Below, piece by piece: positions 3,001 to 6,000 of a stretch of DNA of 9,825 bases. The first letter of the stretch is position 1, and each line of letters begins with the position of its first letter. The position numbers were made by a program. The stretch spans positions 1 through 9,825 of IMG/VR virus record IMGVR_UViG_2695420874_000001; one strand, given 5' to 3'. Source of the stretch: a virus (lineage: Duplodnaviria; Heunggongvirae; Uroviricota; Caudoviricetes).

Positions 3001-6000
3001 GAATATTATTTACAGGTAAATGGAGTGGGGCGCATGGATAGAAATATTACAATAGAGTATGAAGTATATGCCCGTATTGTATGGGCAGAGAAGGCAAAAA
3101 CACGGTAATTCCGTGTGTTGCCATGATACCTGATTGGCAGAATAGTTGTTTGGTTTTGAGTATATAGTCAGCGTTTTTTGTTCAGTAATTGCCCCCTCAA
3201 AAAATAATAAAATAAGGTGATTATTTTTGTTTATTATTTAGTTTTTTTTGTGTGTTATTTTATTGTTTTTGCGTGGTTTGTTTTTTATTGTTATTTCATT
3301 AAGGGAAGGTAAATTCAGGATGGCAGTCTGTAGATAATCGGAGGTCACTTATGCTACATGATCACGTGGCAGAATGTCTGGAGAAAAAAGGACTGTACCG
3401 GAGAGCAGCTGAACGATGGGCAAAAGTGATGGTACAGCTAAGTGATGACCAGAAAAGAAAAGTGGCGGCACAGAAACGAGCAGAGTGTTTGCGTAAGGCG
3501 CGCCGGACTCCGGTTTCACCGGTGAACCTGACCGAAATAAAACAAGCGGTCAACAGACTACATTCTGAGTTGGGAATGGGATTTGAAGAGCGGCGGGTAT
3601 TCCGACGATATAAAGGGACAGGAGAACAGAATACGTCCGGAAACGCGCGGTCAAAAAAATGCTAAAAAATATCTGAGAGAGTTATTGCCTGTTACCATAA
3701 GAAAAAGCGACTTTAGTGGTCGCTTTTTGTGTCATATATAAGTCGTTTAAGTAAACCTGTCTGAACAGGTGCTCTGGTCGTGTTTGTCTTTGTTGGGTAC
3801 AAATTGAGAATATTTTTCATTAATTAATCTTCTTCTGCAGGCTTCAATAACCCACGCTGAAAAATTACCTGAACCTTTCAGGTCAAGAGCGATGTTAATT
3901 TGTTCAATTATCTGGTTTGGAAATCGGATGTTGCGGGTTGTTGTTCTGCGGGTTCTGTTCTTTGATGACATAATGTTGCCCCGTATTCAGTGTTGCTGAT
4001 TTGTATTATCTGAAGTTGCTTTTACGCTAATTTGATGCAGATCAATTAATACGATACCTGCGTAATAATTGATTATTTCTCGTGGTTTGATGGCGTACAC
4101 ACATGTCGTGATAAACCTCATGTAGATGATAATTATTATCATTTTCGTGGGTCCTTTCCGGCGATCCGACAGGTTACGGGGCGGCGACCTCGCGGGTTTT
4201 CGCTATTTATGAAAATTTTCCGGGATCCATGTCCGGTTTCTCTTCAAGTTAACTATATGAAAAATATAAAAACAGGTCTTCTGTGAACCGGACATGAACA
4301 AAAAACAGACATGTAAACCGGACATGACCGGTTTTGTTGTGATTGTGAGGTGAGAGTTTTTGCGAGGTGAGGAGTGGCTACGCAGACTGAAGTTGCCAGG
4401 CATTTAAGTCTGACCGATCGCCAGCTTCGCAGATTGCAGAAATTGCCGGGTGCCCCGATATCGAATAAGCGAGGGCAACTGGATCTGGATGCCTGGCGCG
4501 ATTTTTACATATCGTATCTGAGGAGAAGTAAAAACGATGTGCCTGATGGCGATAGCGAAGACGACTATGAGGAGAAATTGCTTATTGCCAGATGGGAACT
4601 GACAGCAGAACAGGCTGTTACACAGCAGTTAAAAAATGAGGTGTCAAAAGGAAAACTTATTGACACCGGGTTCTGTATTTTTGCCCTCAGTAAGCTGGCA
4701 ATGGCGTTATCCAGTACGCTTGATTCCATCCCTTTATCCATGCAGCGACAGTTTCCTGATTTAACACCGCGCCATCTTGACCATCTGAAAACCCTTATTG
4801 CTAAGGGGGCAAATCAGTGTGCGCGGGCAGGGGATAAATTACCGGATTTACTCGATGAATATATCAGAGCAACAACTGAATAATATGATGGCTGCCGTTT
4901 CGGTTGCGCTGCAGCCTCTGGTCAGGGTTGTACCAATGACGGCAGTTGAATGGGCTGATCAAAATTATTATCTGCCTAAAGAATCTTCATATGGTGAGGG
5001 AGAATGGAAAACGCTGCCATTCCAGATCGCCATTATGAACTGTATGGGTAACGACCAGGTTCGCACGGTTAACCTGATTAAATCTGCCCGTGTTGGCTAT
5101 ACAAAGATGTTGCTGGGGGTGGTCGGGTATTTTATTGAGCATAAATCCCGAAACAGTCTGCTTTTTCAGCCCACGGATTCTGCCGCTGAAGATTTTATGA
5201 AGTCTCACGTGGAGGCGACGATTCGGAACGTGCCATGCCTGAAAGACCTTTCCCCATGGCTGGGTCGTAAACATCGTGACAATACTCTCACGCTGAAACG
5301 CTTTTCATCGGGCGTCGGTTTCTGGTGCCTGGGCGGCGCTGCCGCCAAAAACTACCGTGAAAAATCCGTGGACGTGGTCTGCTATGACGAACTTTCCTCG
5401 TTCGAGCCGGATGTCGAAAAAGAGGGGTCGCCAACCCTGCTGGGGGATAAACGTATCGAGGGCTCTGTATGGCCAAAATCCATTCGCGGCTCGACGCCTA
5501 AAATCAAAGGCTCCTGCCAGATCGAAAAAGCCGCTAACGAGTCGGCACATTTCATGCGTTTTTACGTGCCCTGTCCGCACTGTGGGGAGGCGCAGTATCT
5601 GAAATTTGGCGATGATGCCTCGCCTTTCGGTCTTAAGTGGGAGAAGAATAAGCCAGAAAGTGTTTTCTACCTTTGTGAGCATCATGGCTGTGTGATCCAT
5701 CAGTCTGAGCTTGACCAGAGTAACGGGTGGTGGATCTGTGAAAACACGGGCATGTGGACCCGTGACGGCCTGATGTTTTTCAGCGCCCGGGGGGATGAAA
5801 TTCCGCCGCCGCGCTCCATCACTTTCCATATCTGGACGGCGTACAGTCCGTTCACCACCTGGGTACAGATTGTCTATGACTGGCTGGATGCACTGAAAGA
5901 TCCCAACGGTCTGAAAACCTTTGTGAACACCACGCTGGGCGAGACCTGGGAAGAGGCCGTGGGCGAAAAACTCGATCACCAGGTACTGATGGATAAGGTG

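Follow-up and report, generated by a model that had tools for sequence, protein, structure and literature searches.

An apparently undamaged lambda-type packaging site and its small terminase subunit gene in a decaying, effector-carrying lambdoid prophage

The window, the 9,825-nucleotide stretch of viral DNA analysed here, contains a complete lambda-type cos site (4149-4330), comprising cosQ, cosN, I2 and a cosB with three boxes. Downstream lie an intact gene for the small terminase subunit Nu1 (TerS), a truncated gene A and remnants of a tail module. The features, in coordinates of the window, are:

4149-4155, + strand: cosQ heptamer GGGTCCT, the same in lambda and phage 21 (majority fraction 0.997 over 43 distinct variants)
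4173-4196, + strand: cosN, with the 12-base cohesive end GGGCGGCGACCT at 4179-4190 and nick-site bases flanking both sides
4208-4222, + strand: I2-type segment TATGAAAATTTTCCG between cosN and cosB, equal to the lambda sequence
4226-4240, − strand: R3-equivalent box, with CCGGACATG at 4228-4236, in the register of R3 of lambda and phage 21 (bp 50-65)
4250-4262, − strand: candidate IHF site TTTCATATAGTTA, the I1 equivalent, two mismatches from WATCARNNNNTTR, assigned by sequence alone
4285-4297, + strand: R2-equivalent box, with CCGGACATG at 4288-4296, an exact repeat inverted relative to R3
4315-4327, + strand: R1-equivalent box, with CCGGACATG at 4318-4326, oriented as R2 and opposite to R1 of lambda and phage 21
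4374-4883, + strand: Nu1/TerS gene, intact, 169 residues, GTG start, Pfam Phage_Nu1 (PF07471) at 67.9 bits
4855-6570, + strand: in-frame gpA::K fusion, joining gpA residues 1-452 to 119 C-terminal residues of K
6567-7148, + strand: tail assembly protein I gene, an intact left-over, Pfam Lambda_tail_I, 99.4% identical to the parent-type prophage
8000-8203, + strand: stub of tail tip gene J, 67 residues, with the second deletion junction at 8168-8174

The left part of the site is essentially that of lambda. CosQ, which packaging termination requires, precedes the cohesive end by 30 bp, the lambda spacing, and from cosQ through position 4223 (taking in the cosN flanks and I2) a single base differs from lambda, in a spacer. 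By sequence comparison, cosN is the same in lambda, phage 21, PhiR12_1 and the intact O55:H7 prophage. In the phage 21 record M81255, the counterpart of TATGAAAATTTTCCG bears the annotation of an IHF I2 site. Identical copies of the 205-nt cos region occur in 17 IMG/VR loci, 12 of which allowed gene A to be assessed; it is full-length at 11 of these. The initial annotation had described the cos site as apparently intact, and this match to copies beside full-length gene A bears it out; the mutated cosN nick site that it named as grounds for doubt was not found, cosN being identical to that of the functional relatives compared. Indeed, all of the cos and small-subunit features that it placed here are present.

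Divergence from lambda sets in exactly at the R3 box, with zero length change between cosN and that box relative to lambda or phage 21. Three exact copies of CCGGACATG are present, with no further copy in the window (chance expectation 0.07; three copies reached in 0 of 200 shuffles). Counted from the cohesive end they occupy bp 50-58, 110-118 and 140-148, and their consensus is approximately AACCGGACATG. The initial description of three cosB repeats unlike those of lambda is accurate as to number and sequence, except that one of the three is inverted. The spacer between the R3 and R2 boxes is 74% A+T and holds the candidate IHF site, at a position homologous to lambda I1, which itself has two mismatches. 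The R2-equivalent box overlaps R2 of lambda and phage 21 in position and is kept in divergent relatives despite differing spacers. The R1-equivalent box is about 10 bp nearer cosN than R1 of lambda and phage 21, and its CCGGACAT core is kept in seven of seven aligned elements. Both downstream boxes are kept in 110 of 116 IMG/VR loci; the spacers vary, and in CFSAN029787 cosN varies too. A lambda-type cosB would be expected to carry R1 in the orientation of R3, which the exact R1 box of the window does not. In lambda, R1 is an accessory site (Feiss et al. 2015). An inverted copy with one mismatch (4323-4331) overlaps the R1 box in R3-like orientation, and is absent as a conserved feature in relatives. 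We weighed the half-box CAGACATG (4306-4313) as a possible fourth site and rejected it, since relatives do not conserve it.

The full-length Nu1-like gene proposed initially is confirmed: all 169 residues agree with those of TerS from the deposited phage PhiR12_1, and likewise with Nu1 of O55:H7 RM12579, strain Ch1 and the CFT073 potB prophage (WP_000235436.1). The protein begins MATQTEVARH. The Pfam match (cutoff 30 bits) covers residues 49-150 only and leaves the N-terminus outside the profile, and scanning the N-terminus with Pfam yielded no more than a sub-threshold hint of Sigma70_r3. A winged helix-turn-helix DNA-binding domain would be expected at the N-terminus; for residues 1-54 a single-sequence AlphaFold model predicts a pair of short helices, then a loop and one long helix (pLDDT 75-81). 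No Foldseek match to this model was significant, MerR-family and RacA DNA-binding domains being among the weak top matches (E > 0.5), and a sequence search against PDB chains gave no meaningful match.

Judged from these comparisons, the cosB and the 48-residue Nu1 N-terminus together define a predicted recognition class apart from lambda and phage 21. The earlier proposal that this cosB implies a specific cognate Nu1 is supported in that form. We had considered identity with phage 21 on account of its similar R box, CATGTCGG, and rejected it because the boxes differ by one inserted base and the Nu1 N-termini are unrelated. The class occurs in 1141 of 5426 complete E. coli genomes (~21%), with up to five copies per genome, and the deposited PhiR12 phages carry its cos and Nu1. 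Prophages of the class with intact terminase are common and, across strains, share the cos class of the window. In the literature searched we found no biochemical or genetic study of this cosB/Nu1 class, and the ten of 181 matches listed by a full-text search for CCGGACATG were unrelated. We see an even balance for and against a broader proposal: that this is a third, uncharacterised lambda-type specificity (boxes AACCGGACATG, Nu1 MATQTEVARH) and that cos2 of the satellite EcCICFT073 was copied directly from the cos of the class, so that phages of the class mobilise such satellites via cos2 without Rpp, together with any DNA bearing the cos, including defective effector prophages. If true, the class would set which prophages, remnants and satellites exchange DNA through common terminase recognition. 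The wider importance of the finding rests with the class: it seems to supply the phage partner so far lacking for cos2 of EcCICFT073-type satellites, and it is a packaging class that has multiplied in EHEC with, by the literature searched, no genetic study.

The large terminase gene is truncated, as the initial annotation had recognized. Gene A is cut at codon 452, leaving 452 of 642 residues and losing the C-terminal 190. The gpA part of the fusion is identical to the intact O55:H7 gpA at 448 of 452 residues, and the fusion contains a complete GpA_ATPase domain, positions 3-137 of 294 of GpA_nuclease, and NLPC_P60. The deletions were mapped by comparison with two prophages, the parent-type one of strain 2015C-3163 and that of O55:H7 RM12579. 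At the first junction (6206-6209, ATGC microhomology) the window lacks 12,629 bp that strain 2015C-3163 has; at the second, with a 7-bp overlap, it lacks 5,525 bp (J, lom and tail fibre) by comparison with the same strain. These two deletions (12.6 kb with 4-bp and 5.5 kb with 7-bp homology) stripped the head genes and most of the tail genes. The claim that head and tail genes are absent is therefore right for the head and wrong for the tail, where the K C-terminus, an intact I and the 67-residue J stub persist. The comparison identifies the parent as a ~51-kb serU prophage that has undergone two illegitimate deletions. The element also carries holin, lysozyme and Rz genes, and its cargo comprises sodC, nleB2 and a truncated nleC. 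In locus L002 (21.7 kb, with 10 kb upstream of the window's stretch; int, xis and the replication genes lie outside) the neighbours are ordinary lambdoid genes, namely DUF968, RusA, Q and lysis genes.

Carriers of the window's deletion are near-identical, with zero SNPs between 3682 and 8363, and by this comparison they are a recent clone. An exact scan for the 34 bases of the gpA::K junction found it neither in species-representative genomes nor in IMG/VR; the deleted element is thus not among them, and these sets give no virome evidence of encapsidation. The doubly deleted arrangement is in no complete RefSeq E. coli genome. Elsewhere gene A ends at varied positions (about residue 538 in FORC 064; residues 44, 347, 486, 616 and 622 in IMG/VR loci), which points to random decay.

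We consider it likely that the window preserves a lambda-type packaging site in undamaged form, with its cognate TerS gene, in a decaying, effector-carrying lambdoid prophage, for which packaging in trans is possible, probably inefficient, and not an adaptation. The lost gpA C-terminus would correspond to about half of the nuclease domain (in lambda, also to the coiled coil and portal tether), so the element presumably cannot cut or package its own DNA. On this reading cos and nu1 survive because the first deletion chanced to begin inside gene A, and not through selection. Terminase should still bind and nick the site if it comes from a phage or prophage that shares the Nu1 class. The resident Nu1 would be irrelevant to packaging in trans, because a compatible helper brings an identical Nu1. 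Recognition of this cos by a helper of the same class is plausible yet not new, because the class is common and trans-packaging of the Sakai prophage Sp4 was published in 2009.

What such a helper would achieve depends on the state of the element. From the integrated element, packaging from one cos would run rightward and abortively through nu1, sodC and nleB2 and on into yodB, and would not terminate unless a second, similarly oriented lambda-type cosQ-cosN followed roughly a headful further downstream. Abortive packaging is all that a lone integrated cos supports, and termination is independent of cosB (Feiss et al. 2015); as for lateral transduction, 'cos phages do not' engage in it. The perC-like gene listed initially among the mobilised cargo would be left behind by one-cos packaging from the integrated element, since perC sits upstream of cos. 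An excised, replicating element would offer cos-to-cos units of ~32 kb, a poor fit to a head of roughly 50 kb: at this size, extrapolated from two relatives, one unit fills ~60% of a head and two ~125%. The question raised at the outset, whether the element suits a lambda-sized headful, is thus answered unfavourably by this estimate. The idea that a helper could package the element in trans keeps its footing in the class-matched precedent of cos and terminase, and is overstated as regards satellite-like mobilisation.

The recurrence of cos and nu1 beside truncated gene A could also reflect selection, a matter beyond the reach of our survey because it was anchored on cos itself and is blind to deletions that took cos away. 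One selective account, which we regard as unlikely, is that the element is becoming a helper-dependent satellite, in which cos and nu1 are kept because transfer by a co-resident phage spreads the effector cargo. At least two independent deletions (those of the window and FORC 064) spare cos, nu1 and the 5' end of gene A; gene A is truncated in further IMG/VR loci; defective Sakai prophages of the same class are packaged, and some are transferred (PMC2669165); and the EcCICFT073-type PICIs, true satellites, bear the same cosB without Nu1. However, neither the window nor the 21.7-kb locus contains alpA, pri-rep, rpp, capsid-size or other helper-redirecting genes. PICIs are small and lack lysis and structural genes, whereas this element keeps its holin, lysozyme and Rz genes and the K, I and J remnants at its estimated ~32 kb, a size that suits neither one nor two units per head. 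Moreover, the late region is syntenic with an ordinary prophage and ~98-99.8% identical to it, and the carriers are a recent clone without variation across 3682-8363, so purifying selection cannot be shown. The initial suggestion of mobilisation in the manner of cos-type satellites is not supported for this element, which arose by deletion from an ordinary prophage with which it remains syntenic.

Somewhat less probable still is a role as decoy or poison against phages of the same class, in which the chromosomal cos soaks up terminase and proheads, while Nu1 and a nuclease-deficient, tether-less gpA::K make inactive mixed complexes. A matching prophage cos does yield tailless dead particles and lowers phage yield (Feiss et al. 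2015), and the fusion retains the TerS-binding region (as defined for lambda gpA) and the complete ATPase domain without half of the nuclease domain or the C-terminus, and its open reading frame is intact in every carrier. Yet an in-frame junction arises by chance in one case in three, expression would require activation of the late genes by Q, and other relatives cut gene A at unrelated positions without a fusion. That the cos is a dead relic usable by no terminase is very improbable, for although the element is otherwise defective (two deletions and a truncated nleC), the 205-nt cos matches, at every base, copies that adjoin full-length terminase genes, its cosQ, cosN and I2 are lambda's save one spacer base, its three boxes are exact, and a deposited phage encodes the identical Nu1.

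Chance survival of the site in a decaying prophage remains our preferred reading. The picture of this element itself hardly changes: it joins the decayed prophages with effector cargo, and its cos could let a helper package it, though probably poorly. The finding is ordinary because helper packaging of defective prophages with the same type of site has already been reported in E. coli O157.

In its architecture the site resembles those of lambda and phage 21, in which the R sites of cosB go with a winged helix-turn-helix of Nu1/gp1 (work of the Feiss laboratory): cosQ, cosN and I2 are the same; R3 lies at bp 50-65, followed by an A+T-rich region (in the window with a candidate IHF site), an R2 inverted relative to R3, an R1, and a terS start at about bp 190-196; and the C-terminal two thirds of Nu1 are homologous. 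It differs in the sequence of the box (CATGTCCGG in the window, CGTTTCC in lambda, CATGTCGG in phage 21), in an R3-R2 spacer ~18 bp longer, in the direction of R1, which is that of R2, and in the 48 N-terminal residues of Nu1, which have no detectable sequence similarity to lambda or phage 21.

The closest precedent is the pair Sp4 and Sp14, defective prophages of E. coli O157:H7 Sakai, which have cos and Nu1 of the window's class (Fig. S8 of PMC2669165 gives ...TTTTCCGGGATCCATGT, and a Nu1 start of MATQTEVARHLSLTDRQLRR). Sp4, like the element studied here, is a lambdoid prophage that keeps cos and is unable to make its own terminase. Its nu1 is disrupted, and its DNA is packaged all the same, 'most likely' by the terminase of Sp14, which resides in the same host and has an identical cos (Asadulghani et al. 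2009, PMC2669165). The lesion in Sp4 is an IS insertion in nu1, and its head genes are only partly defective; the window instead has an intact nu1 and a truncated gene A and has lost the entire head module. Sp4 is, in addition, amplified by replication spreading from a neighbouring prophage (PMC2669165). The unexcised lambda prophage is the model for the integrated state: in 'doc'-type particles a matching helper terminase starts at the prophage cos and proceeds rightward (Feiss et al. 2015). The outcome of one-cos packaging in lambda is a tailless, non-infectious particle, not mobilisation (Feiss et al. 2015); a transducing particle needs a second lambda-type cos about one headful downstream.

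With EcCICFT073 and SaPIbov5 the element shares a helper-type cosQ-cosN and the need for helper terminase and capsids (Fillol-Salom et al. 2018, 2019). EcCICFT073-type satellites are otherwise very different: they are ~11 kb (in locus L140; the published PICI criterion is 12-15 kb), carry int, alpA, pri-rep, rpp and their own attachment site without lysis genes, and replicate to concatemers that are packaged as multimers. The window element has none of these satellite modules and is simply a prophage with deletions. The unexplained second cos (cos2) of EcCICFT073 bears the same three-box cosB as the window, identical at 132 of 149 positions and in register.

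The cos site and nu1 of this prophage remnant are intact, as the initial annotation had observed for 4126-4883. Its interpretation, that the element may be packaged in trans, is partly supported. We aligned the site with the joined ends of lambda, the annotated phage 21 cos (M81255), the deposited phage PhiR12_1 and the intact prophage of O55:H7. In this alignment the window differs from lambda by one spacer base between cosQ and 4223 and is otherwise identical; the similarity ends precisely at the start of lambda R3. The boxes beyond that point are named by position.

4149-4155, cosQ (GGGTCCT), 30 bp upstream of the cohesive-end sequence
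4179-4190, cohesive-end sequence GGGCGGCGACCT
4228-4236, minus strand, R3-equivalent box, exact copy of CCGGACATG, bp 50-58 from the cohesive end
4288-4296, plus strand, R2-equivalent box, exact copy of CCGGACATG, bp 110-118
4318-4326, plus strand, R1-equivalent box, exact copy of CCGGACATG, bp 140-148

The rest of the window has no further copy of CCGGACATG; three compare with 0.07 expected, and none of 200 shuffles gave three. Phage 21 has its boxes at bp 50-65 (R3), 107-122 (R2) and 150-165 (R1), and the CGTTTCC cores conserved in lambda are at bp 53, 114 and 155. The spacer between the first two window boxes is 74% A+T and contains a candidate IHF site (a consensus match with two mismatches) at the position homologous to lambda I1. 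The nu1 gene starts at bp 196, compared with 191 in lambda. The anatomy originally described thus holds, but two details are refined. One is that the first box runs opposite to the second and third; the other is that R1 is oriented like R2. In lambda, phi80, phage 21 and Gifsy-1, by contrast, R2 is the only box in the opposite orientation. Three short-read assemblies (Logan contigs L009, L007 and L008) are broken inside the conserved cosN-I2 block, starting at window 4175 and 4194. A first 31-mer at 4194-4224 is consistent with the graph branching at 4224, the point of divergence between cosB classes; this implies a second lambda-type cos with another cosB in those genomes.

Box and protein together define a recognition class distinct from lambda and phage 21. 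The 169-aa Nu1 of the window matches, with 100% identity, TerS from PhiR12_1 and from prophages of strains O55:H7 RM12579, Ch1 and CFT073. Its match to the Pfam Nu1 profile is limited to residues 49-150. In sequence, the 48 N-terminal residues that precede the match resemble neither lambda Nu1 nor phage 21 gp1, nor any protein of solved structure. A single-sequence model of this region points to a helix-turn-helix containing a loop, but no hit in the fold searches reached significance. The phage 21 box CATGTCGG is similar, but not identical, to the window box CATGTCCGG. A distinct box and an unrelated N-terminus argue for the specific cognate Nu1 that had been proposed.

Comparative conservation supports the boxes as functional sites. 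The CCGGACAT cores are kept in all seven aligned elements despite differing spacers and cosQ-cosN intervals and, in one of the seven (CFSAN029787), a different cosN as well; a half-copy, CAGACATG, is not conserved among the seven. With the R3 region as anchor, a scan of IMG/VR gave 119 loci representing 43 different variants of cos, and both downstream boxes were exact in 110 of the 116 assessable loci. In CFSAN029787 (about 475-730 of L017) these cosB boxes and this Nu1 class occur beside another cohesive-end region (…CACGGGGCGGGAGCGGCGCAG…), so that cosN and cosB/Nu1 appear to swap as separate modules. One IMG/VR variant has R2 and R1 merged into a single box (…GTGAACCGGACATGACCGGTTTT…). Feiss proposed that the simple cosB of N15 arose by this kind of event, an unequal crossover between R sites. 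Among 50,697 deposited phage genomes only the five PhiR12 records belong to the class. Of 5,426 complete E. coli genomes, 1,141 carry it; a single genome can contain as many as five copies, and O157:H7 strains contain three.

The window is the entire 9,825 bp of contig CYCG01000036.1 (assembly GCA_001277755.1). Its genes run in this order:

3' end of a SASA esterase gene, then holin, lysozyme and Rz
perC, then a DUF3950 gene on the opposite strand
cos, then nu1
truncated gene A fused to tail gene K, then tail gene I
sodC on the opposite strand, then a J stub
nleB2, then the start of nleC

The same arrangement occurs at 99.98% identity in L002, a 1.1-Mb contig of another assembly, where the element ends in nleF, adjoining yodB and zinT; it is absent from the complete RefSeq E. 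coli genomes. PerC-family regulator genes lie a short way upstream of cos in this prophage family (window 3351-3665) and also in the EcCICFT073-type satellites (L020, 1462-1854). The nleC gene (9476-9766) is shortened to 96 codons; full-length nleC is about 330 aa. The parent-type prophage of strain 2015C-3163 has nleC annotated with this same truncation, which is therefore older than the deletions.

That prophage is a near-intact counterpart of about 51 kb at the same locus (tRNA-Ser and mtfA to yodB), and shares perC, cos, nu1, sodC, nleB2, truncated nleC and nleF with the element. Relative to it, a first deletion of 12,629 bp runs from codon 452 of gene A to mid-K, with 4-bp microhomology (ATGC) at 6206-6209. 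A second, of 5,525 bp, removed J, lom and tail fibre genes and has a 7-bp overlap at 8168-8174. The first yields a predicted chimera:

4855-6570, gpA::K fusion, 571 aa, junction in frame, reading frame intact in all carriers

The fusion keeps gpA residues 1-452, of which 448 are identical to the intact O55:H7 protein. It retains the complete terminase ATPase domain and 135 of 294 nuclease-profile positions, followed by 119 residues of the K NlpC/P60 domain. By lambda's domain map the remaining endonuclease, the coiled coil and the portal tether are lost, so the element cannot package itself. An independent deletion is found in FORC 064 (L014, 24140-26624), in a prophage at the same chromosomal locus with cos and nu1 intact. 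Here gene A stops near aa 538, where it abuts a fragment encoding a tail-fibre C-terminus; just upstream, in tandem, is the end of a second prophage (nleH, nleF).

Is cos kept by selection? We found no sign of adaptive retention in the sequences compared. The 205-nt cos region is identical in 17 IMG/VR loci, and full-length gene A comes next in 11 of the 12 assessable; this match to functional relatives means that cos is intact, and equally that there has been too little time for it to decay. Among the available fusion carriers, all near-identical, there are no SNPs between 3682 and 8363. Endpoints of gene A in related elements are scattered (FORC 064 as above; aa 44, 347, 486, 616 and 622 in IMG/VR), and in two more IMG/VR loci nu1 itself is cut, at aa 64, which recalls the IS-disrupted nu1 of Sakai prophage Sp4. 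Gene A is intact in 56 of 76 judgeable loci, split in 9 and truncated or absent in 11, in a survey anchored on cos and thus blind to the frequency of cos loss itself. Four of those 11 are cos2 loci of PICI satellites, and these four never had nu1 or A beside the site.

Packaging in trans is a reasonable idea, and one already published for this class. Sp4, its nu1 disrupted, is still packaged; given that Sp4 and Sp14 share an identical cos, this was attributed to the terminase of Sp14 (Asadulghani et al. 2009, PMC2669165). Fig. S8 of that study gives Sp4 and Sp14 the window's cos type (…TTTTCCGGGATCCATGT) and Nu1 type (MATQTEVARHLSLTDRQLRR…). The precedent stands, within mechanistic limits. The resident nu1 would add nothing, because a helper brings its own identical Nu1. 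Packaging from a single integrated cos enters host DNA and stalls, giving a tailless particle (Feiss et al. 2015); lateral transduction is not performed by cos phages (2026 study). Termination requires only cosQ-cosN, a matching cosB being unnecessary (Feiss et al. 2015), so a particle could be completed at a second lambda-type cos lying roughly a headful downstream. The perC gene, proposed as mobilised cargo, is upstream of cos and so outside single-cos packaging.

Headful fit, also raised initially, is unfavourable. Two independent estimates (about 51 kb minus 18.2 kb; a ~14-kb left arm from FORC 064 plus 17.5 kb from L002) put the element at ~32 kb. If excised and replicating it would offer units of this extrapolated length, a poor fit to the head: one is ~60% of class phage genomes (51.9-54.4 kb) and two ~125%, against roughly 78-105% of genome length for stable packaging in lambda. 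Small satellites get round the size problem by multimer packaging. The likeness to cos-type satellites was overstated, since the element has none of their defining modules.

The element is of little note in itself; its packaging class is the part deserving attention. Seven IMG/VR loci with the class cos but without nu1 or A (L020, L026, L031, L039, L050, L052, L078) are relatives of EcCICFT073, the satellite that serves as the E. coli model. This island has two cos sites: cos1 adjoins rppA and is used with lambda, phi80 and the phage 21-type phage 4. No role has been assigned to cos2, which its authors compared only with lambda, phi80 and phage 4, reporting no phage cosB; they later asked why two different cos sites occur in some islands. 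We find the class three-box cosB in cos2, both in those seven loci and at two further sites:

L140 (CFT073, NC_004431.1), about 11786-11962, minus strand, EcCICFT073 cos2
L139, about 11600-11776, cos2 of a related island

In a subgroup (L139 11148-11811 and the seven IMG/VR loci) rpp is reduced to a remnant of 22 codons on the opposite strand, yet both convergent cos sites persist. The stretch between the inverted cos copies is apparently inverted or deleted relative to CFT073.

EcCICFT073 cos2 has the window's R3, I1, R2, R1 layout and is identical in register at 132 of 149 positions from cohesive end to R1, which suggests that cos2 mimics the cos of this third phage class. Island transfer in CFT073 was unchanged after deletion of prophages other than phage 4, a result that is not decisive here because island induction depends on phage 4. 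A complete lambdoid prophage in CFT073 itself, at potB (L141, NC_004431.1 1330000-1378000; cos at about 18504-18690, nu1 at 18729-19238), with its right end ~5-6 kb upstream of the EcCICFT073 integrase gene, is a candidate for the phage cognate to cos2. Its cos is of the same class, and its Nu1 (WP_000235436.1) is identical to that of the window.
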